NCBI GenBank assembly: GCA_036172245.1
Contig: JAYWIR010000083.1
Span: 248,001-312,000 of the forward strand
DNA length: 64,000 nucleotides
Source of the DNA: Raillietiella orientalis
Taxonomy: Eukaryota
Reading direction: 5' to 3'
Shown here: positions 27,755-56,152 of the stretch, piece by piece
Position numbering within the stretch: the stretch's first letter is position 1
Layout of the letters: the number at the start of each line of letters is the position of its first letter
The notes under the pieces: generated by a model
The model's database searches: none
What the model was told of the DNA's origin: nothing
The model's input: the letters and a program-made list of their open reading frames with translations, nothing else
Position numbers and translations under genes: made by a program

Positions 27755-28385
27755 GTGTTGTAGGCGCATTTTCTTGGTGCTCCTCGGTGCCGGGAATCCC
27801 CCCTTCAGTGCGCTGGTGGTTCAGTGGTCGTTCAGGCGGCAATGCCTGACGAACACCAGTATCAGGAGGCGATGGCCACGTTCCCAGTGACTATGGAGGT
27901 GGGGGCGTGGGCCTCCACAGAATCTGTCTCCTTTGCGGGGTAGCCGAGTGGTAGCGGCGCGTAGGCCTGCAGCCGCGGCGGAAATGAATGCCTACATGTA
28001 GGGCTACAACCCTCATTGCTCTACAAGGCGATTTGTACTCCGTGAAGTACGTTCGACCCTACGATGCCGATGTGCGCTCTCAACGTGTTAAACAAAAATC
28101 TCGGCGCGATCACCATCCGAAGCGGGGGGCAGAACGTTGAAGTGATTTGCAAAGGGCAGATCTGGCTCGGCGGCTGCCCAAAACTCCCGTTACGATGGGA
28201 AGCTCACTCTTCCCACTACAGTGGACCGCAGCATTGTGGTCCATCTGTTTGGTGTTCTCGCGCGAATGCGCTGTGAATTCCGTGCCGCCCTCAAGCAAGA
28301 TGGTAGCGTGCACGCGCAGCAGTTCAAGCCTTTTGTGGATTTTACGGTACATCAGTGCGAACTCTCGGCCACGCATATTTGCCTC
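27755..28385 (+). pseudogene. Decayed 5' UTR and ORF1 start of a Tx1-like LINE
   Basis: ATGCCTGA at 27842, MEVGA, and IRSGGQNVEVICK match the ORF1 at 39600. Confidence 0.75.
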
Positions 28386-28990
28386 GTACCCTGGAATCGG
28401 CTCGTACGGAGAGAGGGTCGGGCTCCCGAATAGCGCCGCGGTTCTTGCGGCGTCCGGAAGGCTCCGTTCGGCCCTTGAAAATCCGAGTGAGGTAGAACGA
28501 ATCTCGTGCCAGATCGTACCCATATCCGCAGCTGGTCTCCAAGGTGAACAGCCTCTAGACGATAGAATAATGTAGGTAAGGGAAGTCGGCAAACCAGATC
28601 CGTAACTTCGGGAGAAGGATTGGCTCTGAGGGTCGGGCCGGTCGGGCTTGGCCGGGAAACGGTAGTGGTTTCCTCGCCGTGGCCGGGAGCTAACGGGAGA
28701 TCGGCGTTTCCTCGCTCGGTCGGGGCGCGCGCGTGCCGGCGGGTCCGCTCGGGGTACGCTCAGCGGCTGCCTGCGGCGCTCGCCGGTCGCGCGTCGTCCT
28801 TCGTAGCGATACCCGTCTCCCATCCCGGCCTTGCGCGGGATTCCGACCCGCGGAACGGCCTCGCTTGACGCTCCGGTCGGCCGTCGCCCGCCGCCGCGCG
28901 CCGTTTTCTTCTCGGCGCGCGGCCGGGCGCTCTGGTCCCGGAGCGTTTCGGCCGGCATGCAGCGATCGACTCAGAACTGGCACGGACAAG

Positions 28991-29022
<32 letters not shown>

Positions 29023-29050
29023 CGCGATGGCCGTTGCCGGTGTTGACGCG

Positions 29051-29082
<32 letters not shown>

Positions 29083-29125
29083 AGTGAAGAGATTCAACCA
29101 AGCGCGAGTAAACGGCGGGAGTAAC
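28386..29125 (+). rRNA. 28S rRNA gene fragment, upstream of the R2 site (orphan/pseudogenic)
   Basis: Conserved LSU cores GTAGGTAAGGGAAGTCGGC, GATCCGTAACTTCGGG, GGGAATCCGACTGTCTAATTAAAACAAAGCAT and GTAAACGGCGGGAGTAAC, with a GC-rich expansion segment between them. Confidence 0.96.
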
Positions 29126-32100
29126 GTTTTATTTTCCACGTTTTTGATATATACAAAGAATGGTAACCCTAAGAAGGGGAAACGCACTGGGCGACACTGT
29201 AGTGTTCGCGCTGGTGGGAGACAAAGTTGTTGGGGAACACTGGGCCTAGAGGTCAATTAAGTCCCTAAACGCCGCACTGCACCATGGTGGGTGAGCCGCT
29301 GGAGTAAGTTCCATCGCGGCAGGCTCGACATCAATGGCAGGCCTCGTGGTGGTGTGGTCAAAGTAGATATCTCGAGCCGCTCGGATCACTGAGCACACAA
29401 TCTTCGGGCGAACAGCCTTTATTTCGTGTGCACTCAGGCCGAGACAGCTGAGAACGGCATCGTTGTTCGGGTGCCAGCTTCCCAGCGACCCGACAACGAG
29501 TGCCTCCACTTTAACTCTGAGACCCTGTGCTTGGTATTCCCTCTCAGCTCCTCGGTATTTGTCGAGCTTTCGGGTCCGCGCTGCATCCAGGGCTTCCTTC
29601 CTGTTTTCAAACGGGACGGTGACATCCAGGATCAGCATGCGGTTCCCGTCTGTCGCGACGATATCAGGACGCAGGGAACTGTTGATGCTCGGGTCCGAAC
29701 GGTCAATGGCGAGGTGGCGCCATTTCGGACGAGCGAGCGGGTCCAAGAGATCCAGGAATTGGTTATGCCGCTGCATAATGCTGGTCCCCAAGTGCTTCAC
29801 GCAGTGGCACAGCACATGCGAGAGAGTTTCTTTGGGGTAACCACAATGGCGGCAGGCTTCATGAAAGCCGGGGCGTTTCCTGTTACCGTTGAGGTACAGC
29901 TGATTGAGTCTCGCCCTATGGATGAATCGCCAGTCACAGAACCTGATCAATTCTGGTCGTTCAAGGAACGCCATAGAGGCTGGGTGCAGGGCCACGCAGT
30001 CGATGATCCTGCCCTGGTCAGGTTTGGCCCGGAGTTTTTCACTGCGACTAAGGCGCTGCAAGCCACGAAGTGAGCGGGCAACGATCTTGCGATCGGATTC
30101 CCGAATCGTTCTTGTGGCAAGCTGTATTGAGACTTGGGTGTTGGTCACTATCCATTCAACGCAGAGCCTCTTCGAGGCCTCTCGCGCACGAGACCAGTAG
30201 TCCATGGGATCACCAGAAGGCAAATTGAAAGGGGGATCAATGTTGCCATTCAAGTATCCCGCTAAGAGGTCCGGTGAGGGTTCTCGTTTGGATTTCCGAC
30301 GAACCGTTTCACCGAGCGATGCCCAAGCCATTGCACGGATAATGAGATCTGGGCACGTCAGCACCTTAAAGGCAGAGTCCACGGCCATAATGTCAGACTC
30401 CTCAGCAAGGAGGACGAGGCCTAGGCTCCCTCTGGCCACGGAGCCATACAGATATTCCGTTGACGAGGCCTGAGTAAGAGGAAGTATGTCCTCTTTGAGT
30501 GCTTTTCTCAGTTGGTTGTCTAACGCAGCCCAGAAAGATTTCTGCTTCGAGCCCATCCGAAGCGCATGCACGAACGAAGGAAACACAAAAGTCTTAAGGG
30601 CATCAATCTTTTGCCACGGCGCTAGGGGAGCGTCAAGCACTTTGGCTACGTGCGAGTGGATCTCCTCGTCGAGGGAGTCACTGTGTATGGCGTCAAAGCC
30701 TACCGGCCTACCTAAATATTGGTATGTGCCAGAGTCCGACAGCACAGTTATTGGTTGTCCACTGATATTAAACTGGCGTTTGCCGGCAGCACGAGGAGAG
30801 CGAGGGTCAAGGTGGAGGGAAGCACATTTCTTGGGATTAAGATTCAGCCCTAGCCGTTGAGCCATCAAGCTCGCGCAGTCGAGGGCCTGATGTAGGGAAG
30901 CGGGATCCTCAGTCATCACGACTAGATCGTCTGCGTATGCCAGTATGTTGGCGCCTGGGACACTCTGCTTCAGCTGCACACACAGAGGTTCTAGGGCAAT
31001 GTTAAATAGAAGCCCAGATAGCGGGCATCCTTGCTTAACACCCCGAGTGACCGCAATAGGGTCAGTGAGACCGTCCACTGTCACAACTTGCGTGTAATTC
31101 TGGGCATACATCTGGCAGATCAGTTCAGTAAAGAGATTGCCGGCGCCTGCACATTGGAGCGAGGAGAGGAGTTGAGTATGGGGGATGGAGGCAAATGCGT
31201 CTTTGAGGTCCAGCCAAGCGACACATAGCGGTCGGTGATGCCGTCTGCTATAGTCCATTTGGTGTCTCAGCATGAAATTATGTTCGAGAACACCATCGTA
31301 TGGCAGGAATCCTTTTTGATGCGGGCCAAGCACCTGATTGCTCAATATCCACTCCCGCATGCGGCGCGCGAGGCATTTAGAGAAAAGTTTGCCCATGGTC
31401 CGGCTAATCGCAATCGGACGAAACTGAGACAGGTCATCCAATTGGGTGTCCTGCGATTTCGGTATAAGAGTTGTGCGCGACTCTTTCCACTCCGGGGGAA
31501 CCCGGCGGTGGGCAAGACATATTGAAAATCGCCGTGAGGAACCGGCATTCAGGATCAAGCCGGCGGAAGGCAGAGTACGGTATACCGTCTGCTCCCGGCG
31601 CGGTGTCCTCACATAGGCGTAGACAGCTTGCAATTTCCTTCGGGTCAAAGGAGGAAAGGTCCATTGGCTCATGGGTGGGGGCCAGTTTAGGGTCCCAGCT
31701 CAGAGGCTGAAACCCAGGCCGAGCTGTGAAGAGGTCCATGTAGTACGCACGAATGGAGTGTCTGTCCACTTGGCATCTAACCGGGGGTCCGTCGAGGATG
31801 AGCCGAACTGCTCGTCGACGATTCTGGTTGTAGAGCCGCTGTAGAGAGCGTGGTGACAGGCTGATTGGACGCACATTATTCTTGGGAACAGTGAAAGGGC
31901 GTAGGCCCAGGGCGTTCCGAATGGCACTGTACGAGGCGTTCAGCGCTCGCATCGCCAGGCCCCAATTGTCTGTTGTTGCTGGCTGAGTCCCAATGTCGTG
32001 GAGAAGCCTTGCAGCTTCCCCGAGGGGATCCAGGCGCTCCCTCTGATTGTCACGCTGGTTATCACGGGCACGTCTCCGGACGGGGGGCGTTGAGGGACGG

Positions 32101-34587
32101 GCAGGGACAGCAATGCTGTCGGGTGAAACTGTCAGTTCACCAATGTTCTCCTCGTCCAGGACGGCGAATCGTGAACCCGGGACAGGGGTAGCGGAACGCG
32201 GAGATTCAGGCTCACTCGAGAAGGTAATGCGTCTGGTCGGGCGCCGAGCTCCACGGGCCAGGTTCCCCGGGGCATTCGGAGCACGTTTCCGCCGACTTGT
32301 CACTATTTGCCATTCCTGATTGCGCGAGGGATCAGGTAATGGGATGGAGGGTGCACTCGTCTGGGGAACATGCTCAATGACCCCTTGGGAGGGTTGGCTG
32401 GTGGCCTGTGGGGTAACGGTGGTACGTTGGCGAGTTCGAGGCGGGACTGGAAGGGTTCCCTGGCCCCTAAGACCACGCGTGTACCGCCGTTCCTCTGCCC
32501 TGTTTAGCGAGTCGTGCCATCGAGCATGATTCGCAAGAGCTTTGCGGTTAAAGAAGTGTTTCTCGCAGTTGTGCTCAGGGCAGGCGAGTGGCGCTGACTC
32601 CTCAAACCGGATCACTCGCGGGCCACAGCGATGCCTCCAGACTGGTATCTGCACTTGCGCATTGCAACGGCTACACACGAGATGGGCTCTCTCAACCGGT
32701 ATCCAGTGCGCGGTGCGCAGGTGGCGGCGTAACGACCCCAAGGTGGATTTCGCCTGTTGCGTACTGGTATGCCACCTGCAGCGCGGTAGTGGACAAGCCA
32801 TAGTAGTGCTTAGTGGCAGATACACTAGGAGGACGTCGTCCTCAGTTAAGGCCGATGGCATTGCGGGTGCCAGGTCAGTTACGGTTCCCTGGGGGCGAGC
32901 CGGAGCCAACGGTTCAGTCACATGAGGAACTGGGGATGGAACGCGATTGACCGGTCTCCGATCGTGATCCTGTAACTCTATTCGGCCATGGCTCGCCTGC
33001 ATAATGCGTAATTGCCGTTGGAAGCGGGGTATGACTGGGCGCTGCCGGCGGCGTCTTGGTCTTTTCCCCTCGACCGCGCGCACGTACGCTGGATGCACAG
33101 GCGGAGCAGGCGGGGGAGAACGAGATATCTGTACTATGTGTTCACTTCTCGGGGAGACTTGCGCAAGCAGTTCGGCCCCAGTCTGAGAAGGAGACGCAAG
33201 AGTCAGGGTGGAGTGACCAGAGAGCCGCGACTCCTGCACTGGGGTGAGCACTCTCGACGCCACATTGCACTGTGGAGGGCGAGTGAAGTAGTCCAGCTCA
33301 GCCTGGGAGAGTCGAGTCAAGAGAACTCGTGGCTGAAGAGCCTGGTGGGAGCTTCCAATCCCCCCCGTCGGAACCGAGACAGGCGGTTCGAGGAGAGGGG
33401 GTGGCAGAGAAAGGCGACGCTCTTCCACAGCCGATGTCATGGGTACTTCCATGTCAAGGATGGAGGGTGTAGCGTTCATCAGTTCACTAGTTTCATTCCG
33501 ACCTTTGCACTTTGCAGATCGAGGGCGATCCTCGTTCTGGTGAGGAGTACTGTGGATGGCAGTTGTTGGCACGTTGAACCACTTCTTGTGCAGTATTGAA
33601 GTGTCCATTGAGCTGCCTGAGGAGTCGGGGAAATCCGCTTCATCCCAAGAGTTGGGATAGTCAATCTCATCTCCAAGGTCCTCGCGGCCTTCGTTCGCTG
33701 CACCAAGGGCTCTGTCCATATGTAAGTGTTTCCATTTATGGTGCGCCTTTCGCAAGGATGGGCGCCCAAAGGAAGCATTACACTTAGGGCACTTGTACTT
33801 CAGAGCAAGTAGCATCTCAGGGAGTTCCACTGGAGGGTTGAGACAACGATGCTGAGAAAGCAGCATGTTTGTGTTCTCGCTCTTGTGGCACTGTAGGCAG
33901 AAAAAACGAACTGCCGGGATATGTACACCATGTATACGGCTCAAGTGTGCCTTAAGGTTCCGAACCCGGTTCTTAATGTCGTTTGCCGTTGTGGCGAACA
34001 CGCAGTCTGGGAGAGGACAGGGCACAGGAGTGTAGGTTCCATGGGAAATCCAAAGTTCGCGCTCCACGGAGAGCGTACAATGCGACGGAGGCATCGTTGC
34101 AAGATGGCGCCTGACGCTTCGCGTGGTCACGTGGGAGCGTGCCGCGGGGCCAATCAGCGCGCTGGTTCTCCGAGCGGACCAATGGGAGCGCACGGAAGGG
34201 ACGCTAAGTTTTCCCGCGCTCGGCGAGGGAACAAAGGATTGCAAGGAGCGATGTGGTAGATCGTTTAGATCAACCACCGTGGCTTAGATCCACACAAAGC
34301 AGTCACAGTAGGAGTGATGAGGGCCCAGGTGGTCGGTTCGAAGTGCCAATCCCTCTTACCTTCCCAACATGTGTGCTCTCTGGTCTTGACCATGGCAGCA
34401 CACAGGCGGGCGACGGAAATGTCCACAGCAGCCACAAAATTCACCACAAATGTACGAAAGTTGGCAAAAAGGTTCACTGTGGGCAGGGGATGCACTGAAC
34501 GAAGAATCACTAGTGGTCATCACTGAGAATTTTCCACAATCAGAAGTTAAAACCTCATGCAGCGTCGGAGCTCCACTCAGACACGTC
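29126..34587 (-). mobile_element. Full-length RLE-type non-LTR retrotransposon (NeSL/Utopia/R5-like), antisense in 28S
   Basis: Bounded by 28S on both sides. N-terminal zinc fingers; RT (FRPIA, DLKDAF, GVKQGCPLS, YADD, YLG); DWRFIHRARLN; CRHC..H...C; RHN; RPD...DV...KLDKY. The 3' UTR ends AATAAAAC. Confidence 0.95.
29246..34094 (-). pseudogene. ZF-RT-RLE polyprotein ORF with a single frameshift at ~31520
   Basis: ORFs 31434-34277 and 29246-31672 join as ..FLTAIFN/ICLAHRRVPPEWKESRT. The first in-frame ATG is at 34094. No other lesion is visible. Confidence 0.9.

Positions 34588-34617
<30 letters not shown>
34582..34617 (-). promoter_or_regulatory. Candidate Pol II Inr+DPE core promoter spanning the 28S/element junction
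   Basis: Minus-strand CCA(+1)TTC with A at 34615, and GGACGTG starting at 34588, which is +28. Confidence 0.45.
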
Positions 34618-34632
<15 letters not shown>

Positions 34633-34643
34633 ACTGTCCCTAC

Positions 34644-34686
<43 letters not shown>

Positions 34687-34690
34687 AATC

Positions 34691-34725
<35 letters not shown>

Positions 34726-34915
34726 ATCTGGCATTGTGAAGAGACATGAGAGGTGTAGCATAAGTGGGAGGCTTTCCCGCTGGCTTTCTCGGTTCGCGGC
34801 CGCGGTCCGCTCCCTCCCTCAGCCCGCGCCGCGCCGCCTCGGGGCGGGTACCTAGCTGCTGCCGCCTCCCCGTCGAGCGCGGTCGGGTTCGCTTCGGCGG
34901 CTCGGAGGCTGCGGA
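34588..34915 (+). rRNA. 28S rRNA gene fragment, downstream of the R2 site
   Basis: CGTCATCTAATTAGTGACGCGCATGAATGGATTAACGAGATTCCCACTGTCCCTACCTACTATCTAGCGAAACCACAGCC...GACCCTGTTGAGCTTGACTCTA, then an expansion segment. Confidence 0.96.
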
Positions 34916-35300
34916 ACGCTGCTCCGCACCAGGACGAGTTGGCTGGTGGTGATAAGGGAGTCCGGGCCGTGGATCCGGTGTCCGTCGACGTTCGGCTCGT
35001 GGTATGGTTAAAGTAGATGTCCCCAGTCGCCCTGATAACATAGCACACGATCTCAGGGCGAAGCGCCTTTCTTTCGGTGTTGCTCAGACCCAGCCAGCTG
35101 AGGATCGCATCGTTGTTCGGGTTCGAGCTACCCAGCGACCCTACAACGATGGCGTCTACCTTGACCAACCATCTCTGTGCTTCATATTCCCTCCGCACGG
35201 TTCGGTACTTGTCGATCTTGTTGGCCGCGGCTTCATCCAGTGAAGCTTGTGTGTTGTCAAAGGGGACAGTCACATGGACTATGAGGATGTTCCGATTGCT
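34916..35300 (-). pseudogene. RLE-domain fragment of a related NeSL-like element (3' UTR missing)
   Basis: [40 protein letters not shown] is paralogous to 29270-29640. Confidence 0.9.
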
Positions 35301-35875
35301 TCTTGGGGTCTGGTGGGGTTATTTTCGCAGGGCCTTGCTGTGGACATATTGTTACGTGCTGAGATTGCTGTGATTCTTACTATCGTAATTTTCTTCAAAA
35401 CTTCGACATATGATGCTTCTTTTTCACACAGTGTAACGGTATCTTGCGGTGTATTGATTACGGAGGAAATAGATGTCATGTAGGATTCATTACTTCGAGT
35501 TTGCGGGATTAATTGTAGACGTTCATGCTGTAAAGGTTGGAAGGCATCCTCATTGCACCTAAATGACTTGTATGTATCGTATCTTGTGGGATATGCTGTT
35601 CCGAGCGTGGTTCCGTAAGTTCTGATCGTTTACATGTCTGAAGGGTGGATTCCGGTGGAGAGTTGTTTAAGGGGGGAACATTCGGTGCACTCTCAAAGGG
35701 GGTGAACAGATATTCAGCGGGCTCTTCGTCCAAGTTAACTAGCAAGTTGGATTTCTTGCTAAATCCCCAGTGTGCCATCTTGTGAGTTTTGAATAAATGT
35801 TTTTTATCAAAGCTCACGGAGCACTGAGTGCATCTCTGTTTCAGATCAGCGATGGGGTCATGTAGCGTGGTGTTC
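35301..35875 (-). pseudogene. Probable N-terminal (C2H2 finger) fragment of a related RLE element
   Basis: LKQRCTQCSVSFDKKHLFKTHKMAH resembles the third finger LKYKCPKCNASF...HHKWKH of the full element. Confidence 0.5.
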
Positions 35876-35877
35876 AG

Positions 35878-36462
35878 CTTTTTATTTCCACGCTTTTGGT
35901 TGACAAATATGGTAACCCTAGTGAGGGGAAATGCACTAGGTGACATTGGTGTTTTCGCACTGGTGGGACACGGAGAGTCAACGAGGGACACTGAACTTAC
36001 AGGTCAATCAGCTCCCTATAGGCCGCACGAGGGGTGAGCAGCCGGAGTGAGCTCCTGGGCAGCAAGTTCGATGTCGGTGGATGGACGAGCGGTGGTGTGG
36101 TAAAAGTAGATATCTCGAGCAGCTCGGATCACTGAGCACACGATTTTAGGGATAACCGCCTTTATTTCATGTGCACTCAGGCCGAGACAGCTGAGAACGG
36201 CGTCGTTGTTCGGGTGCCAGCTTCCCAGCGAACCGAGAACGATCACCTCCACTTTAACCTGGAGGCCCTGAGCTTGGTAATCCCTGCTGATGCCACGATA
36301 TTTGTCCAACTTTCGGCTTCTTGCTGCATCCATGGCTTCCCCCCGGTTCTTGAACAGGATGGTGACGTCCACGATCAGCATGCGGTTGCAATCAGTGGCA
36401 TCGATATCGGGGCGAAGGGAGCTGTTGATGCTTAGATCGGAGCGTTCAATGGTGAGGTTTTT
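35878..36462 (-). pseudogene. 3' end (RLE domain and 3' UTR) of a second copy of the NeSL-like element
   Basis: SINSSLRPDI..RKLDKY..GSLGSWHPNNDAVLSCLGLSAHEIKAV is nearly identical to the full element; the UTR is shared and ends CGTGGAAATAAAAA. Confidence 0.92.
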
Positions 36463-39400
36463 CACCCGGGTGAGCCGGGGCTATTAATACTAAAATTTCT
36501 TACAAAGGAAAAAATTCCGTAATAACGTCAATGTTTTTTCAGCAATGTTTGTCTTTTTGTCAGCACAGCAGGTCATTGATTTTTCTGGCACTTGTCCTTA
36601 CCGAACCGTATGCCGAGAAGTTCCTACAAACTGGCACAGGGGTGGGAAAAACAAAAAAAAAGAATATAAAGCAAAAAAAAAAAGAATAACACAGGGGGGA
36701 ACACTGTTTTGTCGGGAGGGGGAGCGAAGAGGGGATCAGGGTGCGCCGTGAGGAGGCCTTTGCATCCTGTTCCGGATGCGAACAAGTGCCGGCAAATTTT
36801 TTTGAAGTCGTCGCCAACGGCAGGCCTTCTCCAAATACTTGGCTGCCCAGTGGATGGCATTCCGACTGGTACTTTGTCTCCTTGACGAGGTCCACTTGTC
36901 CGGGATTCCGCGTTTGCAACAGAGCACTGCTACAGTTCCGGAAGCTGGCAAGGCGTCCCGCATCAGTAGGCGTTTAAATAAATTTTTCGTGTAACCGACC
37001 GGAATGTTTAATATCGACGAGAGTCGTTCCCACATCTCCCGGAGGGCAACACATTCCAGAATCAGGTGGGGGAAGGTCTCCCGTTCCCCGCACTCTGCAC
37101 AACTGGCATCCACACTCCCCGATGTCCATTGCTTAAAAGTCCACAATGCAGCTGAAGCAACGCCGTCTCCTGCCACTGCAGGGGAAGGGTGCCTTTGTCC
37201 CAAGACGCTGCGGGCCACTTCACCTCCTCCGGAGGTACGTAGAGCAGTGCACCCCATCGTGAAAGTCCATTCGGCGCGAAACTCGGGGTACTAGCGTCCG
37301 CTAGTTCCCGGGACGACCACGCCTTCAATAATTTTTTCCTGCCTCCGAAGAGGCAGGACACTTCCCACGATGCCTCCTGTTCGCTGTCCCGAACTTCCCT
37401 GAGGGAGGGCAGCACATTGGCAAGGAGGGTGAAAGAAGCCCACAGAAGTTTTCCTGGGTTGGATACGATGTGCTGCAGTGGCTGAGCAGCGTACCTGCCT
37501 ATACGGAGGCAGGAGAAGTCCTCATAGCTGGAGTTGTTGATCTTCGCCCATGCAGAAACCGACTTTTGAAGCCAGGTAGTCCAGTCCGCTGGGATGCAAG
37601 AGATCCAAGGGTTGTCTCTCATCAGGGCAACCAGATCCCGCAGCTGAAACCCACAATGGTTCAGGCTACCGTCGTTGGCTACCGGCAATGAAGTCAATCC
37701 GAAGCAGCCGGTTGCCCTGTGAGCAAGGAGTCTTGCGGGTGCACACCATTGTGCTGTCCAAAACTTTGCCACAAGGGCAAGTTTTCTGAATTGGAGCTGT
37801 CGCTCCATGCGCTCCAACGACAGGAGACCAAGTCCACCGTCTCTGCGTGGAGCGCACAAGTCTTTCAGCCGGACGCGGGGCCTCCGGTTGCCCCAGAGGG
37901 CTTTACGTATAAGGCCCCTAGTCCGTGTCCTAATTTGGTACGGGGTTGGGCACACAAAAAGTAGGGAGCGAAGGAGGGGGGCCGCGAAAGCGTTCCATAC
38001 CATCGCCAGTTCCTGCAAGTGAAACTTGCCGTTCCGGAACGGGCCGATCGCCAACTACACCTTTTGTAGAATGTCGGACCAGGCTTCTGCAGAGCAGAAG
38101 TCCCCCAACGCAACGCCAAGGTACTTGATGTACCTGCCCGTGGGGATCTCAAAACGGATCCAGGCCGACCGTCCGGCTGTTGTCGAGTCCGTGAATAGTA
38201 ACGCCGACTTCGTCCTGTTTACCTGGAGGCCTGTACCACGGTATAGCAACTCGAAGAAATGTTCGAGCGCCGATGCCGGGGTGGACCCGGGAAGCAGGAG
38301 CAGAAGATCGTCGTCAGAGGCCGCTACGGCTGGCGTGCCGGGGCAGGAGCTCGGCAAGGGGGCCAAAGTCTCCCTGTACGCTCTCAGCACCAAGTCAGCG
38401 TAGGTGCTAAAAAGCAGGGAGCTGGGGCTGTCGCCCTGCCTTATGCACCGCCGCACCGGCACGCCCTACACCTTTTGTCCACTGAAAGTAATCGAGATTA
38501 TCGCTTTCCGCCAGCAAGAGCGCGGGTATGTAATCAAGGAGGGTGGGAAGCCCATGCGACTCAGGAGCTCCAAGAGGATTTCCTGGTCAACACAGTCGAA
38601 AGCCTTATGGAGGTCGACTGCGATCGCTAAGGCCCCGTTTCTCGCATGAGGGTCCCTACCCTGTCCCACTAGCGGCCCCAAAGTAGGGTTGCAAATTTTC
38701 CCTTTCCCTTCTTTCTTACTCCTCTGCGCGTGCATCCATGTGCTCGCGCAGAAGAGGTTGTCCTCCATACTTCGCCCGGGAACAGCGTAAGTCTGCTCCG
38801 GACTAATTATGGAATTGGACACCTGCCCCAATCGCGACGCCCACAGTCCGGCAATCAACTTGGCGTCCGTGTTCACAATTGTGATGGGACGCCAGTTGTT
38901 CAATTTTCTCAGGTCTCCCCCTTTCGGAAGGAGCCTCACTCTGCCTGACCGAAACGAGGCGGGAACATCGCCTTCGTCTCGGATCAGCCTGGTCAACTGA
39001 AGCACCAGGGGGGCCAGCTCTTCCGCGTAGCACTGGAAGAACTCCGCGGGCAAGGCGTCCTCCCCTGGCGCCTTACGCCTTCTGAGCCTTTTGATACCGG
39101 CGAGAATTTCGCCGGTCGTAAAAGGCTCGTCGAGGCTTACCTTCTCCTCCCCTATTCCCGGGGCTCCCTCCGGAAGCAAACGACTGGAAACGTCCCGCTC
39201 CGTGGGGGCCTTGGCGTAAAGGGAGGAAGAAAAACACCGCACGAGGTGCCGTATTTGAGCCGCGGCCGACTGCTCCCGGCCCTGATCGTCCATCAGGCTG
39301 GCCGACCCGGATTGCCAGGCTTGACGTTCGGCCCCGGCTCGATACTCCGCCAGGCGACGGATATTGGGGGTCCTCGCGTAACGACGGGCGTATAAATACG

Positions 39401-39517
39401 CGCGTTCGTTACGGACCCCTTCCCCAAATCAGGGGGCAGGCGATGCAAGGGGAACTCCTCGCAGAATTCCCTGACCGAGGCCTTAAAGAGGTCCCAATCA
39501 GCGAGATTGCGGAGCGT
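36463..39517 (-). mobile_element. 3' half of a Tx1-like LINE (subfamily A, nest level 1), decayed ORF2 and 3' UTR
   Basis: ORF2 from TLRNLADWD through APGED.LP, WRPI, DLHKAFD, RQGD, YLG and CAECGERETFPHLILEC, with stops and frameshifts. Confidence 0.92.
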
Positions 39518-41690
39518 CGAGCGGACGTGTCTTTTCGTTGCTCCTGAGTTTCATTTCCGTTGGTGCTTGTGCGTGGTGTGCGTGGAGGATTAGGCAGCAA
39601 TGCCTGATACCACCACCGGTGAGGATCCGGGGGCGATGACCTCATTGCCCCCGGAGGAGATGGAGGTGGGGGCTCCCGCATCAGTGGAGGCTTCCGCCAG
39701 CATGGATGCGCCCCCGGCCCTACCCAGGGCTTGGAACGCCGTGGCTGCGGCACCTACGCCAGCGGCTATGGCGGAAATGCGCGCTTACCTGGAGGAGGGG
39801 TATAACCCACCCCTTCTATATAAGGTAGGCGGTCTATATTCTCCCGAGAACGCGCGCGCCTTCTCACAGGCGATGCGCGTTCTCGGCGTACAGAAAGAGG
39901 AGCTTCTGGCTATGTCCGTCAGAAGCGGGGGTCAATTTGTGGAAGTTATCTGCAAGGAGGCAACTCTTGCGCAGAGACTTCTGCGAACCCCCGTAATTAT
40001 GGGCAGCCGGAGGCTTCTCCCAATTACTGAAGACCGGTCGGTTATCCCTCACCTGACCGGTATCACGTTCCGGATGACGAAGGAGGCCGTCCGGAACGAA
40101 TTAGAAAAATTTGCAGCTGTCCACGCGCTGTGGGGAAAGCCTACACCTTTTGTCGATTACGACGGGGTGCTTGGCGGCCTGGGTGCAGCGCGAGTGACGG
40201 TTCGCGAGGGATGTGAGTTTCCCCATAAACTCACCGTCAACGGTGAATCCGTTGACGTGTGGTACGTGGGGAAACCCAAGTTTTGCGGCTGCCGCAGCAG
40301 CTTTGGTCACCTAAAAATGAGGTGTCCGAGCGTGCAGTGCCAGCAATGCAAACAAGCGGGGCACACCCGTCTGGTGTGCCCCCAAAACACAGTCCGCGTC
40401 GTGTCCGCGAAAAACGCGAGAAAGCGCGCGGCTAAAAAGAGGAAAAAGCTGGCAGCTCGTGCTGCTGCTAAGGAGGTCACTTCCGCCACCCAGGCGAAGG
40501 CCAGCTTCGAGACCCCGGCGAAAAACGCCGAAAAGGTCGAGGGCGAGGGTCAAGAGCCAGGGTGTCAGAAGGTCGATTTCAAGAAAAACTCCCATAAGAA
40601 GGGAAAGAACGTGGTGAAACGGAGCGAAACCGCTCTGCGCCGCGAAAAAATTAAAAGCTGCTGCGTCGTCGTAGAGCGGATTCCCGCCATCGACGAATGC
40701 GGCGCTAAAGAACTCGCTGCTGCCCCTGCTCAACCCTCCGTTGACAAAGTCAACAAGGAGGGGAGCGAGGCGGCGGCGTCCGTCATCGAGCCCACGCTCG
40801 ATGACGTCGCCTTCGAGCGCGCCGCGGAGGAGCTGGCTGCCTCGTTGCAGCCGGTTGCCCCCAAGGCTGGCAAGAAGGCCGTCAGGCGTCCGGCTTCCCC
40901 TCAGGAGTCGGCCACTTCCGACCCCGAGGTGAAGGCCGGAAACACAGCATCCATCTCCGCGGCACCCCGCAAATAGGCAGGACGAATGTCCACAATGCCC
41001 CGGAAGATCGTCTCCCCCGACGAAGGGGAAGAGATGGCTTCCGGTAGCGAGGGTGCCATGAGCGTGGGGAACTCCCGGGACCCGTCGACCGAGAGACTCC
41101 CACGCGCGGACACGGAGGGGATGGTGAGGATGGAGGCCGAACAGGTACCCCAGGCGCCTGAAGAGGCCTCCGTCCTCGTTCCGATGGTCCTCGTACCGAT
41201 GGACCTTTCCTACACCTGCCCCGCGGCAGGTGCCGCGACGCCACTTTCCCAGCCATAATGCCGGGAATCGCCTCTCGCCGTCGTCTTCTGATCGCCTGTT
41301 GGAACGTGAACGGGCTAAGCGACGACGGCAAGAGGCGTGACGTGGCAGCCACCCTGGCATCCTTCGACCTGGTGCTGCCGCAGGAGATCCACGTGATCTC
41401 CGCAGATCAAGCCCGGGAGATCGAACGGATCTCGAGTGGGCGGCTGTTGTGGCGTTGCGGCACCGCGAAATCAAGCGGTGTCGTCTTCCTGCTTCGGCCA
41501 GCCATCGAGACCTCAATAAAGGACGTTCGGTTCGATGACGCAGGTCGCGTCAGTCAGCTGACTCTCAGCTGGTCCGACTTTATCGATCTGGTCGTCACCA
41601 ACCTACACGCTCCTAGTGGAAACGCCGCGTTGAGGGCGAAGGCAAGAAGGGAGTTCTACCTTCCCTGAGACGCGATTGGCTGACCGAACT
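39518..41690 (+). mobile_element. 5' part of a Tx1-like LINE (subfamily B, nest level 2): ORF1 39600-41258 with one internal stop, APE start from 41258
   Basis: ORF1 has twin CCHC knuckles (CGCRSSFGHLKMRC, CQQCKQAGHTRLVC). TAATG stop/start overlap. ORF2 begins IACWNVNGL..QEIH..NLHAPS. Confidence 0.92.
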
Positions 41691-42770
41691 TTTTTTTCTT
41701 TTCTGGCCTTTACTAGCTTCTATCCTTCTTCCTCTCCCGCGTCTTCAGCAGGTTTTTCCTCCGACGCCTGGGTGGGAGGAACAGGAGATGGCGGCTGGAG
41801 CCGGCCAGTTACGCGATAAGGTCTTTCGTCCTTTTTTCATTTTTTTTTGCCTGTGCCTTTTTGGCAGCAGGTGGCACCGGGGTGGGGCGTTTGGAGCACA
41901 CGACGAACGTGTCCCTTAACCCCGCACAAGTGGCACTCGATATTCGCGCACCGCTTGTGCAAGTGCCCTACTGCATCGCAGTAGCCACAATAGCGGGGTT
42001 TCCCCACGTACCAGAGGTCGACGGATTCATTTGCGACCTTCACTTTGTGCGGCAAGCCACTGCCCTCATTAACCGTTACACGCGCTGCGGTCTGGCTCCG
42101 AAATGGCTATTGAAGCCTTCGAAAATGGTAGGCATTGGCCACAACGCATGTATCTCACCGTACATACTGAGTTCATTACTCACCGCAGATCGCGTCATGC
42201 GGTTCGTAATGCCGGTTAGATGAACCACTACGGAGCGGTCCATGCTAACCGGCAGGATCTTCCGGCCATCCACATTCAGCGGGGTGTTAATGAGGCGCTG
42301 TGTTAAGGCTACGTCTTTGCAGACGACCTCCACGCGCTGCCCCCCGCTGAGTACGGAGAGGCCGTCAAGATCCTCCTCGCGTACAGGGAAATCCTGCAGT
42401 GCCCTACTAAAAGCCCGGGCGGTGCGACCATCAAACAGGGGTCCTACCTTATAAACCAGAGATGGTTTATATCCTGAGGCCCTGTAGGCCGCTTGCTTTG
42501 CCAAGGTTTCCGCGCTCGGCGCGGTAACCATGGCGCTCCACGTCCTCGGCGTTGCCAAGGATGATTCCGGGGCGCACGCCCCTGATTCTGCAGGCTGTGG
42601 GGGTGGGCAAGCCTCCCCCACACCTACCTCCATCGTGGTGTCCTCAGGCGTCGCTGCCATCGGACACCAACGATGTTCCACACGAACACACACAAAGAAA
42701 AAACCGCTTCCTGTCGACTCGCTCGGGAGGTTAGGAAAAACACGTCCGCTCGCCAAGGGATTTGGGGCTG
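41690..42770 (-). mobile_element. 5' UTR and partial ORF1 of a Tx1-like LINE (subfamily A)
   Basis: MAATPEDTTMEVG..YKPSLVYKVG..CGYCDAVGHLHKRC..CHLCGVKGH; 3'-truncated. Confidence 0.9.
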
Positions 42771-45700: not shown

Positions 45701-48415
45701 AGGCGGTGCAGGGGAAACTCCTCGCAGAACTCGCGGACCGAGGCCTCAAGAGGTCCCAGTCTTGGAGACTTCGGAGGGTGACGCCTCTCAGGAATTCGCG
45801 AAGGTGTTCTTTCCCACCTGAGAGCCGAGTCCCGTCCCCAGGCAGCCGCCACGCCCTGGACGGGGGTCCTTTGTAGCGCGGGCAAACCTCGGCGATGATC
45901 CTGGAATGGTACGACAGCGTCGAGGCAACTTTTCCCCGTTTGCCTACCCGCGAGCACAGGTCGACATCCAGGAAGAAGTCGTCGATACAGCGGTCCATTC
46001 CCTCCGCGTCTGCCAACAAGTTGCGCGTGCGCATGGCAGCGCACAACTCGTTGGCCGTGCGTTCTTGTGCTTCGGCCTCACCTGACAGTAGACGGAGATT
46101 AAAGTCCCCAGCTATCAGGTGTGCCTTCCGCACGTTCGTATCGGCCATCCAGTCGCGTTTCAGGGTTTCCAGCAACCTGATACGGTCGCTGTATCCCCCT
46201 TTCCCGCCTGGGGCGTACACGTTCGTGACGATCAATTCGATTGGGTCGGACCAGCTGAGAGTCAGCTGACCGACCCGACCGTCGTCATCGAAGCGTACGC
46301 CCTTCACGGCAGCGTCGATGGCCGGCTTCACCAAGAACGCGACCCCGCAGGTGTTGCGGGCGCCGCATCGCCAATACAGTCGACCCCCCGCGATCGCCTC
46401 GATCTCCTGGATGTCTGCCGCGGTGAACACGTGGATCTCCTGCAGCAGGGCCAGGTCGAAGTCACGCAGGGTGTCGGCCGTATCTCGTCTGTTGCCGTCG
46501 TCGCGCAGCCCGTTGACGTTCCAACTGGCCACGCGGATTCGACGGCGACAGGCGAGCCCAGGTGTTATTCCTGGGAAATCGGCTCTGCGGCGTCCGCCAC
46601 ATGTTGGAGCGGGACGCTAGGTGGAGGAGGAGGGACAGGTGCCTCTAGCACCTGGTCACCCTCTTCCATCGGTAACGGCACGTCGGGCGGTTCACCCTCA
46701 GGTGGGGTCGCGCCTACCTGCTGGCCCTCCTCCATAGGGGTGGACTCCTCAGGGTCCGCGACGGCAGGGGGGATTTCGCCTTCCTGCTCACCCTCCTTCA
46801 TGGGGGTGTCCTGCTCGACGGCTTCCGCGGGTGGGAGCTCCCCCTCCGGGATTCCCACGCTGCCGGCGACTTCCTGCTGCTCCTCCACGCTCGTGGAGGG
46901 GAGGCGCTTCCTCGGCTTTTGGGACTTGCGTCCCGTCTTCCGGGGTGTGCCTTCGAGGAGGAGGATGTACTTCCGGCCCCCAGTTTTAACTCACCTGCGG
47001 GGGCCTTGTTTACTGGAGCCGGTCTTCGCACGGCCTTGCGCGAGAGGTTCTCACGCTCAGCCAGCGTGGCCGCGAGCTCCTCCGCCGCCTTCGCGAAGGC
47101 GGCGTCCTCGACGGCGGCGAGAGCGTCGCGCGTCTCACCCTCTGTGCAAACAGAGGGTTCGCCGTCGCGAACCTCGGGCGCGGCGGAAACGGCGAGGGGA
47201 GGCTCGTCTCCCCGGGTGGCAGCCTCGGGAACGCTGATGCGCTCCAGTGCTACCGAGCACTCGCCGAGAGTTTTAGATCGCGGACCAGGTTTTTTCGCCT
47301 TCGCGACCGTCTTTTTCTCCGCCTTCTCTTGTGAACCCTTTTTGGGTTCCTTTCTGGCCTTTACCAGCGTCCATCCTTCTTCCTCGGCCGCGTGTTTGGC
47401 GGTTTCTTCCGCTGCAGCCTGGGTTGGAGGAGGAGGAGAAGGCTGCTGGGGTCGGCCATTCTCGCGATGACGTCTTTCGACCTTATTCATCTTTTTCGAC
47501 TGTGCCTTTTTGGCAGCAGGTGGCACTGGGCTGGGGCGTTTAGGGCACACCCGACGGACGTGTCCCTCTTCCTCGCACAAGTGGCACTCGATATTCGGGC
47601 ACCGCCTGCGCACATGCCCTACTGCATCGCAGTAGCCACAATAGCGGGGTTTCCTCACGTACCAAGGGTCGACGGGCTCCTTTCCGACCTCCAGTTTGTG
47701 GGGTAACCCAACACCCTCGTTCACAGTGACACGCGCTGCTGCCTGGCCACCAAAGAGGCTTTGATAGCCGTCAAAAATGGTTGGCTTTGGCCACAGCGCG
47801 TGCACATCTTCGTATTTCCTCAATTCCGCGTTCACCGCAGAGCGCGTCATGCGGTTTGTGATCCCCGTTAGATGGACCACTACGGAGCGGTCCATGCTAA
47901 CGGGTAGGATCTTTCGGCCAGCCACATTCAGCGGGGTGTTGATGAGGCGCTGCGCAAGGGCTACGTCTTTGCAGACGACCTCCACGCGTTGCCCCCCGCT
48001 GAGTATGGCGAGGCCGTCAAGATCCTCCTCACGCACGGGGAATTCGTGTAGTGCCTTGCTAAAGGCACGCGCGGTGCGACCGTCGAACAGGTTTCCTACC
48101 TTATAAACCAGGGATGGTTTATATGCGGAGGCCCTGGAGGCCGCTTGCTCAGCCAAGGTTTCCGCGCTCGGCGCGGCGACCATGGCGCTCCAGCTCCTCG
48201 TTTTGGGCGACGAGGGCGATTCCGGGGCGGATGCCCCTGATTCTATAGGTCGTGGGGGGGGCTAGCCTCCCTCACGCCTACCTCCATCGTGGTGTCCTCT
48301 GGCAGCGATGCCATCGGACACCAACGATGTGAAAAAGCACACACTGAACCAAAAAAACAAACGCTTTCCGCTGCTCGTTCGGGGAGGGCCGGAAAAACAC
48401 GTCCGCTCTCGAGGA
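42771..48415 (-). mobile_element. Full-length Tx1-like LINE (subfamily A, level 3) with frameshifts
   Basis: 5' UTR, ORF1 ~48310-46565, ORF2 ~46565-42983 (APE, RT YADD, CCHC), and a 3' UTR with the terminal hairpin. Confidence 0.95.
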
Positions 48416-50665: not shown

Positions 50666-50909
50666 TTTACACCCGGGTGCGCCGGGGCGTTTATTTCTTT
50701 AATAAAAAAATAAACAAGCAAGTGTAGGGCTATCTCCCCTACAGTGTTCAGAACATGTTCTTCTGAACTCGCCGAGTGGGCAGCACGCAGGCTCCCAAGG
50801 TCGACTCGGCAGCGGAGGGGGAAGGGACAAATAGAAAAAAAGAAGAAAACACTATTTACAAAAGCAGGGAGGGGTTGGGGAGGGGATTACGTTCCGCTGG
50901 AGACGTCCT

Positions 50910-56077: not shown

Positions 56078-56152
56078 CCCCCGACCACTGATGCACCGCA
56101 CTACACCAATAAAGTCGAGCGAGTCAGGAGCGCGCAGAGAACACGTCTGACC

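Follow-up and report, generated by a model that had tools for sequence, protein, structure and literature searches.

An antisense R2-type retrotransposon in 28S rDNA opens with a DPE-like motif at +28 from an initiator-like site in its target: a possible junction-spanning promoter

We found that an R2-type retrotransposon (hereafter copy 1) in the window, that is, the whole stretch of 64,000 nt of DNA that was analysed, is inserted antisense to a 28S rRNA fragment and opens with a DPE-like motif, and that this motif starts at +28 from an initiator (Inr)-like hexamer in the adjoining 28S. The leading reading of the junction, to which we assign slightly less than an even chance, is that the Inr in the 28S and the DPE in copy 1 could together form a Pol II core promoter spanning the junction. 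An initial annotation of the window had proposed such a split promoter, and this interpretation was partly supported by the analysis described below. The antisense orientation that it had described was confirmed, as the ORFs placed copy 1 on the minus strand and Rfam placed the 28S on the plus strand.

Copy 1 was delimited by its minus-strand ORFs, by matches to RVT_1 and to solved R2 proteins, and by its boundaries, and comprises the following parts.

29126..34588, minus strand, antisense to the plus-strand 28S: copy 1, an R2-superfamily (RLE-type) non-LTR retrotransposon of 5463 bp
34095..34588, minus strand: 5' UTR of 494 nt
31434..34094, minus strand: N-terminal part of the ORF, 886 aa, with two homologous three-zinc-finger modules, from the ORF list
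31518..31528, minus strand: single frameshift, between ...LTAIFN and CLAHRRVPPEWK
29246..31672, minus strand: C-terminal part of the ORF with reverse transcriptase, CCHC motif and restriction-like endonuclease, from ORFs, RVT_1 and solved R2 proteins
29126..29245, minus strand: 3' UTR of 120 nt, which ends ...GGAAAATAAAAC without poly(A) and adjoins antisense 28S GTTACTCCC

The ORF of about 1600 aa is continuous apart from the one frameshift, and relatives switch frame at element positions 3061-3071, as examined by tblastn. The reverse transcriptase is of the R2 type (RVT_1, E 3.8e-30); solved R2 proteins matched copy 1 at E 2.3e-58 to 5.2e-43, whereas LINE-1 ORF2 matched at just 1e-14. The translation holds the CCHC motif CRHCGYPKETLSHVLCHC followed by RPDIV...D...K, the pattern of a PD-(D/E)xK restriction-like endonuclease. 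In an alignment of 12 sequences including copy 1 (A1), the columns C607/C610/H619/H623/C624 and P669 D670...D683...K702 were invariant or nearly so. The two zinc-finger modules share 26% identity over 111 aa (E 8e-08), and a Dermacentor relative matched both of them in tblastn. The R2-type reverse transcriptase, the CCHC motif with restriction-like endonuclease and the N-terminal zinc fingers thus place copy 1 in the R2 superfamily. Protein searches gave no close relative: the nearest reverse transcriptases, which form a clade with members from spiders, ticks and aphids, are 41% identical at best, identity to tubeworm R2 loci is only about 27-28%, and the best protein match of the N-terminal part is 28% identical (E 1e-27).

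Within positions 34250-34700, no Rfam ribozyme match that would indicate an HDV-like ribozyme at the 5' end was obtained at E values up to 10, with the reservation that diverse R2 ribozymes may escape Rfam models. The folding energy of the 5' UTR was ordinary, without excess (z -0.05). The initial annotation had reasoned that an antisense element obtains no sense RNA from Pol I co-transcription, and this argument was upheld given the opposite strands. Since no HDV-like ribozyme was detectable and Pol I provides no sense RNA for an antisense element, a junction-spanning Pol II promoter is the reading that we prefer.

The 28S sequence flanking copy 1 was identified by the Rfam LSU_rRNA_eukarya model, as follows.

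28345..29125, plus strand: left 28S rRNA fragment, LSU model positions about 1660-2263, ending ...GTAAACGGCGGGAGTAAC
34589..34900, plus strand: right 28S fragment, with conserved core to about 34790 and a GC-rich, expansion-segment-like stretch after it

The left flank was matched exactly at 29108-29125. On the minus strand the 5' junction reads ...aatCCATTCatgcgcgtcactaattagatgac|GGACGTGtctgag..., with the boundary between 28S and element at 34589|34588. This boundary is supported by an exact 29-nt match to 28S at 34589-34617 of the plus strand, by identical 28S letters in the tubeworm rDNA loci L018 and L025, and by Rfam LSU matches on the plus strand. Between the two conserved blocks the Rfam consensus counts 56 positions, of which the window retains 9 and 17, indicating that 30 nt of 28S are missing at copy 1, or 29 nt if the shared junction G is assigned to the 28S. 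A fixed deletion of 29 bp had been claimed previously; the length holds when the shared G is counted in this way, and "fixed", like a precise junction, would here rest on one full-length copy. The missing 30 nt bracket the canonical R2 site, so that the junctions of copy 1 lie 16 nt upstream and 14 nt downstream of it. For comparison, canonical sense R2 elements in three loci (L023, L018 and L025) have their junctions 13-16 nt past GGGAGTAAC and 14 nt ahead of GTCATC.

The 28S on the right stops by about 34900-35113, and no further LSU, SSU or 5.8S match was found in the window beyond the fragments flanking copy 1, indicating that the 28S there is an orphan fragment. The surroundings are a TE-rich region, in which copy 1 is the single full-length copy of its kind, and two further R2-like sequences lie nearby.

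35880..36468, minus strand: copy 2, a 5'-truncated relative of copy 1 with 78% nucleotide identity, whose 3' end is complete and followed by sequence other than 28S
34905..35288, minus strand: copy 3, a diverged R2-like C-terminal fragment with 59% amino acid identity, adjoining the GC-rich 28S-like stretch

The 3' end of copy 1 is also present in copy 2. These circumstances bear on an explanation by chance, in which copy 1 is a dead insertion of an R2-like element that is not strictly rDNA-specific, the 28S is an rDNA pseudogene and the junction motifs have no function. The frameshift in copy 1, the orphan state of the 28S and the position of copy 2 outside 28S all agree with such an origin and, like the presence of a single full-length copy, also count against the promoter reading. 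On the other hand, the chance that a random insertion in 64 kb would remove exactly those 30 bp around the R2 site is about 5e-4, and together with the recurrence of the junction module described below this leads us to regard the explanation as improbable.

At the 5' junction, three sequence blocks were recognised.

34612..34617, minus strand: CCATTC, an Inr-like hexamer in the antisense 28S, with A(+1) at 34615
34581..34588, minus strand: GGACGTGT, a DPE-like motif forming the first 8 nt of copy 1, at +28..+35 from 34615
34567..34571, minus strand: GCTCC, the second block of the module RGACGTGT-N9-SCTCC, at +45..+49

CCATTC agrees with TCAKTY at 5 of 6 positions and with the extended initiator consensus (PMC1636488, in the part accessible) at 6 of 8. 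GGACGTGT fits RGWCGTG at all 7 positions and the extended consensus of the LINE DPE at all 8 (PMC1636488, accessible part), a consensus from Drosophila, while the host here may not be an insect. That insect LINE promoters combine an Inr with a DPE, as had been stated beforehand, agrees with the consensus A/G-G-A/T-C-G-T-G/T-C/T at about +29..+36 given in the same text (PMC1636488). The junction arithmetic could be read directly from the minus strand and was correct as originally given, with the A at 34615 and GGACG at +28..+32 (34588-34584); GGACGTG reaches +34. From 34615 to 34588 there are 27 nt, so that the DPE-like motif starts at +28, the canonical strict spacing. Position +24 at the junction is T, and +18..+27 are unlike the motif-ten consensus, which, with the imperfect Inr match, weighs against the promoter reading. 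No Inr lies between the junction and the DPE-like motif, as copy 1 opens with the motif itself, and a whole core promoter inside the element with +1 at its first base, as in insect LINEs, was not found in copy 1.

We then compared the pair with chance expectation in the whole window (128,000 strand positions), which contains 1250 TCAKTY sites (at most one mismatch) and 30 RGWCGTG sites. The copy 1 junction is the only pair of the two at +28. However, about 0.33 such pairs occurred per spacing over 51 spacings, so that one +28 pair somewhere in the window is unremarkable, a point in favour of chance. What is remarkable about the copy 1 pair is its place: the element starts directly with the 8-nt DPE-like motif. 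Any one given position would be Inr-like by chance in about 1% of cases, going by the frequency of 0.98% in the window, and 2 of about 60 positions are so in the 28S flank nearby; the 28S Inr-like site may be a coincidence of 1-3%. With a looser Inr, [CT]CA[AGT]T, combined with RGWCGTG over 75 spacings, the pairs peaked at +28, where there were 3 against a mean of 0.17 per spacing, and all three lie at retroelement 5' boundaries. Likewise, CCAWT, with a frequency of 0.0015 per position, was found exactly 27 nt upstream of 3 of the 8 RGACGTGT sites and at no other distance within 70 nt.

The 22-nt module RGACGTGT-N9-SCTCC opens copy 1 and recurs in the window at the 5' ends of a LINE family unrelated to it, whose ORF2 has protein relatives that are at best 25% identical. 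The LINE copies concerned are as follows.

56127..56148, minus strand: LINE copy A, AGACGTGT-N9-GCTCC, with CCAATG in the flank, its A at 56175, 27 nt upstream
39523..39544, plus strand: LINE copy F, GGACGTGT-N9-GCTCC, with CCAATC in the flank, its A at 39496, 27 nt upstream
48383..48404, minus strand: LINE copy C, without an Inr-like site at -27
42726..42747, minus strand: LINE copy D, without an Inr-like site at -27
62097-62118, plus strand: LINE copy G, the inverted duplicate partner of D
59696..59717, minus strand: LINE copy E, with one mismatch (CGACGTGT)

The module has seven matches in the window (six in the LINE and one in copy 1) against 0.29 expected, and none of 100 shuffles reached seven. 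The two blocks, which are separated by 9 variable nt, do not change and are the sole invariant ones across the diverged LINE 5' regions; recurrence and conservation of this kind count against a chance origin of the module. Overall homology of the R2-like and LINE 5' UTRs was considered and rejected, as local alignment was no better than with shuffled sequences (46 to 342 of 500 reached the observed score). Twin priming was likewise rejected as the source of the head-to-head LINE junctions, as it is the inverted part, not the direct one, that corresponds to the more 3' region of the LINE.

The LINE junctions speak on both sides of a different explanation, in which the DPE-like module is a real part of an internal promoter that is not split. 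The master element would then have its own leader of about 27 nt with an initiator, which was lost here at integration, and CCATTC of the 28S at -27 would be coincidental. At the 5' junctions of the LINE, which are of five types, 4, 5, 10, 11 and 15 nt of LINE leader remain ahead of the motif, indicating that near-full-length copies are routinely trimmed inside the leader, or that the motif lies nearer the start site than +28. Such common trimming suits a lost leader, as do the roughly 1% chance noted above, for a finding that was selected for that very coincidence, and the fact that any uniformity of the junction rests on a single copy. An Inr-like site at -27 is missing in 2 of 4 independent LINE junctions (C/D/G and E), which counts against the promoter reading. 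However, the loss of a leader requires a truncation that ends precisely where the motif begins and, as a separate event, the occurrence of an Inr-like site at canonical spacing, and the same coincidence at -27 recurs at two LINE junctions, A and F. The weight of these two is uncertain, since their flanks are alike over a longer stretch (AAGGAAGTCCCCAAT and AAAGAGGTCCCAAT); a target preference of the LINE is therefore possible, and A and F may not be independent support. Such a preference could be the cause of CCAAT at -27 in A and F, but the C/D/G and E junctions do not agree with it. A lost leader and a site-specific element with a target-homologous leader cannot be told apart from one copy, and we give the former a substantial probability, of the order of one third.

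It is also conceivable that RGACGTGT-N9-SCTCC is a 5'-terminal signal of the RNA or cDNA, acting in processing, in termination of reverse transcription or in 5'-end joining, or the site of some other factor, with transcription coming from elsewhere, for example by read-through in a co-oriented TE cluster. In every copy the module is at the 5' end or at most 15 nt from it, not at +28, and copy 1 is preceded on its own strand by copies 2 and 3 and by a LINE. Against these observations, there is neither conserved secondary structure nor a ribozyme match, invariant blocks around 9 variable nt are the pattern of protein-contacted DNA, and the motif coincides with the published LINE DPE consensus (PMC1636488, accessible part). 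We therefore hold this explanation to be unlikely.

We also searched for relatives of copy 1 and of its junction. In a metagenome scan for non-28S continuation after the antisense 28S flank (GCGTCACTAATTAGATGACNB), nine loci were found, none of them with an element; five are 28S variants, and four (L001, L002, L005 and L007) diverge at the same phosphodiester and continue into unrelated sequence without an Rfam name. Scans of viral contigs gave neither relatives of copy 1 nor junction matches. A scan of prokaryote assemblies with a reverse transcriptase alignment gave 75 contaminating eukaryotic R2-like loci, none antisense to 28S, and the three that carry 28S motifs, from Escarpia symbiont bins, are all in sense orientation. 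A second 5' junction of the copy 1 type was thus not found in the window or in the metagenome, viral-contig and prokaryote-assembly scans. In addition, Pfam gave no match for 14 further ORFs at positions 1-28000.

Under the junction-spanning promoter that we prefer, the following sequence of events would apply. Elements of the copy 1 type would integrate antisense into the 28S gene. The first nick would fall in the rRNA-sense strand, 16 nt before the canonical R2 site, and as the 5' junction lies 14 nt beyond this site, 30 bp would be lost. In antisense orientation such an element could make no use of the Pol I transcript. Its first 22 nt, the extended DPE GGACGTGT plus GCTCC, would be a downstream core-promoter module common to the host's non-LTR elements, and the universally conserved antisense 28S would provide the initiator-like CCATTC exactly 27 nt upstream. 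TFIID and Pol II would then start at or near 34615, and the RNA would begin with 27 nt of target sequence as a leader. The complement of this leader, made by reverse transcription, may anneal to the target and so give a uniform 5' junction and a uniform deletion. The role as junction template that the initial annotation had assigned to target sequence on the RNA 5' end has a precedent, as it has been postulated for sense R2, together with the propagation of a uniform deletion (PMC3774820, accessible part). Some R2 elements have a ribozyme that cuts inside the upstream 28S and retain a 28S leader on their RNA, and the proposed 27-nt leader would act alike; the source differs, being Pol I co-transcription and self-cleavage in sense orientation for those elements and proposed Pol II initiation in antisense orientation for copy 1 (PMC3774820, accessible part).

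Copy 1 shares with canonical R2 elements (R2Bm, R2Tg and relatives) a single ORF with N-terminal zinc fingers, reverse transcriptase, CCHC motif and restriction-like endonuclease, the targeting of the same 30-bp stretch of 28S, and a 3' end without poly(A). Unlike them, it lies antisense to the rRNA, has junctions at -16/+14 around the site with a 30-bp deletion, has a duplicated zinc-finger module, and gave no sign of an HDV-like ribozyme. Canonical R2 inserts at the R2 site in the sense of the rRNA, which allows Pol I co-transcription, and its strict target specificity shows in many copies with the same 3' junction. Here there is one 28S copy, and the 78% identical copy 2, with its complete 3' end, sits in a non-28S flank. 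To our knowledge, every R2 element described so far relies on Pol I transcript and ribozyme. The accessible parts of PMC5035012 and PMC13188248 contain no mention of antisense R2 under orientation terms. A full-text literature search and the accessible part of PMC4640811 gave no case of an antisense rDNA-specific R2-type element, and one may still be in print.

In comparison with other retroelements, neighbouring or target sequence would provide the transcription start in copy 1 as it does in HeT-A and in the spliced-leader-gene elements, with the difference that copy 1 would take half a core promoter, on the antisense strand. HeT-A is reportedly "promoting in tandem", the start being supplied by neighbouring sequence as a complete external promoter in sense orientation. 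In spliced-leader-gene elements such as SLACS, the target gene supplies the start, again as a complete external promoter in sense orientation. The insect LINEs known to bear a DPE include jockey, Doc, G, I, F, SART1 and TRAS1 (PMC4748587, accessible part), and the extended LINE DPE consensus comes from Doc, F, G, I and jockey (PMC1636488, accessible part). Copy 1 has the same extended DPE, an initiator-like site at the putative start and no TATA, but the promoter of those elements is wholly internal with +1 at the first base, whereas copy 1 opens with the DPE and has the initiator-like site in the target (PMC1636488, PMC4748587, accessible parts). In Trypanosoma cruzi, Pr77 of L1Tc is a 5'-terminal module of unrelated retroelements with a CGTG-type DPE that is essential for transcription; Pr77 is 77 nt long, lies wholly inside the elements and is also a ribozyme, while the module of copy 1 and the LINE is 22 nt long and no ribozyme was detected (PMC4748587, accessible part).

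A wider proposal, which we put forward tentatively and consider rather doubtful as a whole, is that each of the host's non-LTR elements has, at its outermost 5' end, just the downstream half of a core promoter for Pol II (RGACGTGT-N9-GCTCC), and that an initiator in the flank, 27 nt upstream, enables transcription. The R2-like lineage would hard-wire this arrangement by antisense insertion into 28S at a position where universally conserved rRNA sequence supplies the initiator, its target-identical 27-nt leader would serve as the template by which the 5' junction is precise and the 30-bp deletion fixed, and it would be the first Pol II-driven, antisense, rDNA-specific R2-type element.

R2 is a model for site-specific retrotransposition and is being engineered for gene insertion. 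If the promoter reading is true, a backward R2-type insertion at the same 28S site would represent a second solution for target-specific elements, in which the target sequence completes a Pol II promoter and also yields a target-homologous RNA leader. The duplicated zinc-finger module may bear on the changed orientation and nick sites of copy 1. One arrangement would then solve three problems, namely how to be transcribed, how to define where the RNA begins and how to keep the 5' junction precise, and a DPE-type module would span unrelated retroelement families of one host, like Pr77 in trypanosomatids.

Copy 1, a retrotransposon copy within a plus-strand 28S fragment, was found on the minus strand together with two related fragments.

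R2-like copies
29126-34588, minus strand: copy 1, retrotransposon copy of 5463 bp
34905-35288, minus strand: copy 3, R2-like, 59% amino acid identity
35880-36468, minus strand: copy 2, R2-like, 78% nucleotide identity to copy 1, 5′-truncated with a complete 3′ end

Copy 1 ends at its 3′ side with ...GGAAAATAAAAC, without poly(A), and adjoins antisense 28S at 29125. Its coding region is one long ORF interrupted by a single frameshift near 31518-31528. The N-terminal part (886 aa) has two three-zinc-finger modules homologous to each other (26% identity over 111 aa, E 8e-08); its relatives are all remote (best E 1e-27, 28% identity). The C-terminal part (808 aa) comprises a reverse transcriptase (RVT_1), a CCHC motif and a PD-(D/E)xK-type endonuclease. 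The RT part matched solved R2 proteins at E 2.3e-58 to 5.2e-43 and LINE-1 ORF2 at about 1e-14; the closest among 5.8 billion proteins, from spiders, ticks, aphids and crustaceans, had only 41% identity. Given this domain content and these matches, copy 1 is assigned to the R2 superfamily, in a lineage without a close database representative. Note that the DNA-binding duplication (31434-34094, minus strand; modules at about aa 22-129 and 430-540) is carried as one module by relatives, and that the predicted protein of ~1600 aa is unusually long for R2. The duplicated module may be linked to the reversal of orientation and the shift in nick sites. Copies 2 and 3 are located just upstream of copy 1 on the same strand, both without a 5′ end, and the 3′ flank of copy 2 is not 28S. 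Copy 3 (34905-35880, minus strand) appears internally deleted, with an N-terminal zinc finger near 35740-35810 and a C-terminal endonuclease part at 34905-35288; it has no 3′ UTR of the R2-like family, its reading frame continuing directly into a GC-rich 28S-like stretch, and copy 2 sits inserted in it in the same orientation.

In the Rfam consensus, 56 positions lie between the conserved blocks flanking the insertion, of which the window retains 9 to its left and 17 to its right. Thirty 28S nucleotides are thus missing; the 29-bp deletion of the initial annotation holds only if the G common to 28S and element is assigned to the 28S. In canonical sense R2 of tubeworm contigs, the 5′ junction lies 13-16 nt after GGGAGTAAC (L023) and the 3′ junction 14 nt before GTCATC (L018 and L025), so that the copy 1 deletion spans the classical R2 site, from about -16 to +14. 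Since a random insertion in 64 kb would bracket the site this way with a chance of about 5e-4, target choice by copy 1 is related to R2-type recognition. Its orientation is reversed relative to canonical R2, and the priming nick would therefore be on the other strand. The surrounding 28S is an orphan piece (about 780 bp left and 200-310 bp right) among densely packed LINE fragments, and no 18S, 5.8S or further 28S domains were found within the window. Separately, four metagenome 28S loci (L001, L002, L005 and L007) break at the exact phosphodiester of the copy 1 5′ junction (after ...ATTAGATGAC, antisense strand). Three of them have a related inserted sequence in common, Rfam named no intron family at the break, and L007 has a 5S gene ~160 nt past it.

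Read directly, minus-strand 34660-34570 is ...aatCCATTCatgcgcgtcactaattagatgac followed by GGACGTGtctgagtggagctccgacg, with the 28S/element junction between the two.

Promoter-like features at the 5′ junction, by direct reading
A at 34615, minus strand: CCATTC, initiator (Inr)-like, its A being +1
34588-34584, minus strand: GGACG, +28 to +32
+28 to +35, minus strand: GGACGTGT, downstream promoter element (DPE)-like, the first 8 nt of the element

From 34589 upward the sequence is 28S rRNA in plus orientation (Rfam LSU matches on the plus strand), with an exact 29-nt match at 34589-34617 whose letters are also contained in the tubeworm rDNA loci L018 and L025. The arrangement of Inr-like and DPE-like motifs at the junction is confirmed, the +28 arithmetic and strand assignment of the initial annotation being right for the A at 34615, for GGACG at 34588-34584 and for 28S on the plus strand. 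The DPE-like motif it had recognised also stands: according to PMC1636488, the extended DPE consensus of Doc, F, G, I and jockey is A/G-G-A/T-C-G-T-G/T-C/T at about +29 to +36, which GGACGTGT fits at 8/8 positions, and CCATTC fits 5/6 core Inr positions and 6/8 of the extended Inr consensus from that paper. No TATA-like sequence was read around -30. In the window, TCAKTY with up to one mismatch has 1250 sites (0.98% of strand positions) and RGWCGTG has 30, and the two form exactly one pair at +28, the copy 1 junction. Because the same search over any spacing gave 17 pairs in 51 spacings (about 0.33 per spacing), a single pair of this kind would not stand out in 64 kb. Its position does: the DPE-like motif makes up the very first 8 nt of the element, and the probability that a hexamer at any one given position is Inr-like is about 1%. 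By direct reading, 2 of ~60 positions of the adjacent 28S flank would serve.

In an alignment of the 5′ regions from an unrelated family of APE-type LINE copies (37-64 kb), only GACGTGT and, 9 nt on, CTCC are invariant blocks, and copy 1 has both at the LINE offsets.

LINE 5′ modules
39523, 42747, 48404, 56148, 59717 and 62097: RGACGTGT-N9-SCTCC, 4-15 nt from the 5′ end in every copy

Allowing one mismatch, this pattern matched seven times in the window, at these six LINE 5′ regions and the copy 1 5′ end (expectation 0.29; seven reached in 0/100 shuffles). That all junction features are chance appears improbable. Since the R2-like and LINE 5′ UTRs are otherwise not alignable (the observed local score was reached by 46 to 342 of 500 shuffles), the module would be either convergent or a small captured piece; it looks functional under either origin. 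It resembles the Pr77 hallmark, which, according to PMC4748587, is common to trypanosomatid retroelements and has a CGTG DPE essential for transcription, in that different retroelements of one host have it in common. Its recurrence gives solid support for GGACGTGT-N9-GCTCC as a putative functional 5′ element of this host's retroelements. A terminal signal acting on RNA or cDNA, with no promoter part, is an improbable explanation of the module; the first 321 nt of copy 1 folded no better than shuffles (z -0.05). As for the LINE family itself, its ORF2 has a best identity of 25% to any protein in the database.

With a looser Inr ([CT]CA[AGT]T) and RGWCGTG, 13 pairs were found over 75 spacings (mean 0.17), three of them at +28: 34615 (minus), 39496 (plus) and 56175 (minus). 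Similarly, CCAWT (frequency 0.0015) lies upstream of 3/8 RGACGTGT sites, always at exactly 27 nt and never at another distance up to 70 nt. The pairs at 39496 and 56175 belong to LINE copies F and A, and in both cases CCAAT lies in flanking DNA outside the LINE, so that, as at the R2-like/28S junction, the flank gives the Inr-like site and the element the DPE. Copy A, itself full-length, is inserted in a LINE copy of opposite orientation, where a 12-nt overlap resembles a duplication, and copy A's own sequence begins 4 nt before AGACGTGT; copy F adjoins antisense ORF2 of another LINE and keeps about 5 of its own nucleotides ahead of GGACGTGT. The junction types C/D/G and E retain a homologous leader of 10-15 nt (CCTTGGCGAGC and similar), with no Inr-like site at -27, so the LINE has its own leader, trimmed to a differing extent in every copy seen; no copy within the window has a leader longer than 4-15 nt before the module. 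Moreover, a flank start of a non-site-specific LINE would be copied into progeny, which the short leaders do not show. The flanks of A and F are alike over about 15 nt (AAGGAAGTCCCCAAT and AAAGAGGTCCCAAT), longer than an Inr requires, and this could come from a LINE target preference. The duplication halves of copy A (50650-50680 and 56148-56180) differ at 2/12 positions, and its ORF1 and ORF2 are intact. On account of the trimmed leaders, the progeny argument, the flank likeness and the 2/12 mismatch, the two LINE coincidences at -27 are suggestive only as split-promoter support.

Several further observations concern this region. The 2/12 difference is odd for an apparently young insertion, and ~100 nt separate the copy A overlap from the recognisable LINE 3′ end. 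Where the flanks have CCAAT (39494-39499 and 56172-56177), homologous uninterrupted LINE copies have CCAGT; the G-to-A difference recurs, at matching positions, in two flank sequences that are unrelated. Within 37000-64000, LINE fragments of either orientation are nested; repeats recur there at spacings of 6259 and 7910 bp, and the two parts of an inverted duplicate (42563-42804 / 62040-62281) are 92% identical. The pattern of this right 27 kb suggests that composite head-to-head LINE units were duplicated at the DNA level.

With the element on the minus strand and the 28S on the plus strand, we accept the Pol I argument of the initial annotation: the Pol I precursor cannot provide sense RNA for an element lying antisense. 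Because the DPE-like motif is the start of copy 1, an Inr of its own could not fit upstream. The simplest working model is a promoter split between target and element, in which TFIID would recognise antisense-28S CCATTC together with the element's GGACGTGT, Pol II would initiate at or near 34615, and the resulting RNA would begin with 27 nt identical to the target. This reading of the junction, first put forward in the initial annotation, is quite possible, if short of probable; the module common to both families and the peak at +28 strengthen it, and it is partly supported overall. A possible but more doubtful reading is that the module is a real promoter part and copy 1 lost its own leader at integration, the 28S Inr match being coincidental. 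The LINE copies likewise lost most of their leaders, and the match would be a 1-3% coincidence of the kind that drew attention to the site initially. For sense R2, PMC3774820 argues that 28S sequence retained at the 5′ end of the RNA allows annealing of the cDNA to the target, giving uniform junctions, and that junction variants are then propagated, e.g., a uniform 7-bp deletion in a springtail. Under the split-promoter model, the target-identical leader would likewise make the 30-bp deletion uniform, as predicted from that logic. An equivalent description would be an ordinary Inr+DPE promoter inside the element, its first 27 nt being identical to the target; an Inr supplied by the target and one carried on the RNA would both fit the one copy. 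The start site, the fixed deletion and the precise junctions are predictions of the model.

No second 5′ junction of the copy 1 type was found within the window, in metagenome contigs (none of 9 loci has the element), in viral contigs, or among 75 R2-like loci of contaminated prokaryote assemblies, where 28S flanks were present in 3, all sense. Note that eukaryotic R2-like contigs in many prokaryote MAGs, some being canonical R2 with 28S flanks, reflect host contamination of bins; those of L018, L023 and L025 carry the label endosymbiont of Escarpia laminata.

Copy 1 is like canonical R2 in its protein machinery but departs from two defining features of it, being antisense and having its junctions away from the R2 site. 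A third defining feature, the ribozyme, was not detected with Rfam families, the 5′ region giving no HDV-like ribozyme match even at E 10. In its core-promoter motifs copy 1 corresponds to the internal promoters of insect LINEs, whereas the promoter here would not be internal. Full-text searches of a literature collection that includes little subscription material, and term look-ups in PMC5035012, PMC13188248 and PMC4640811, returned neither an R2-type element specific to rDNA in antisense orientation nor a core promoter split between target and element.
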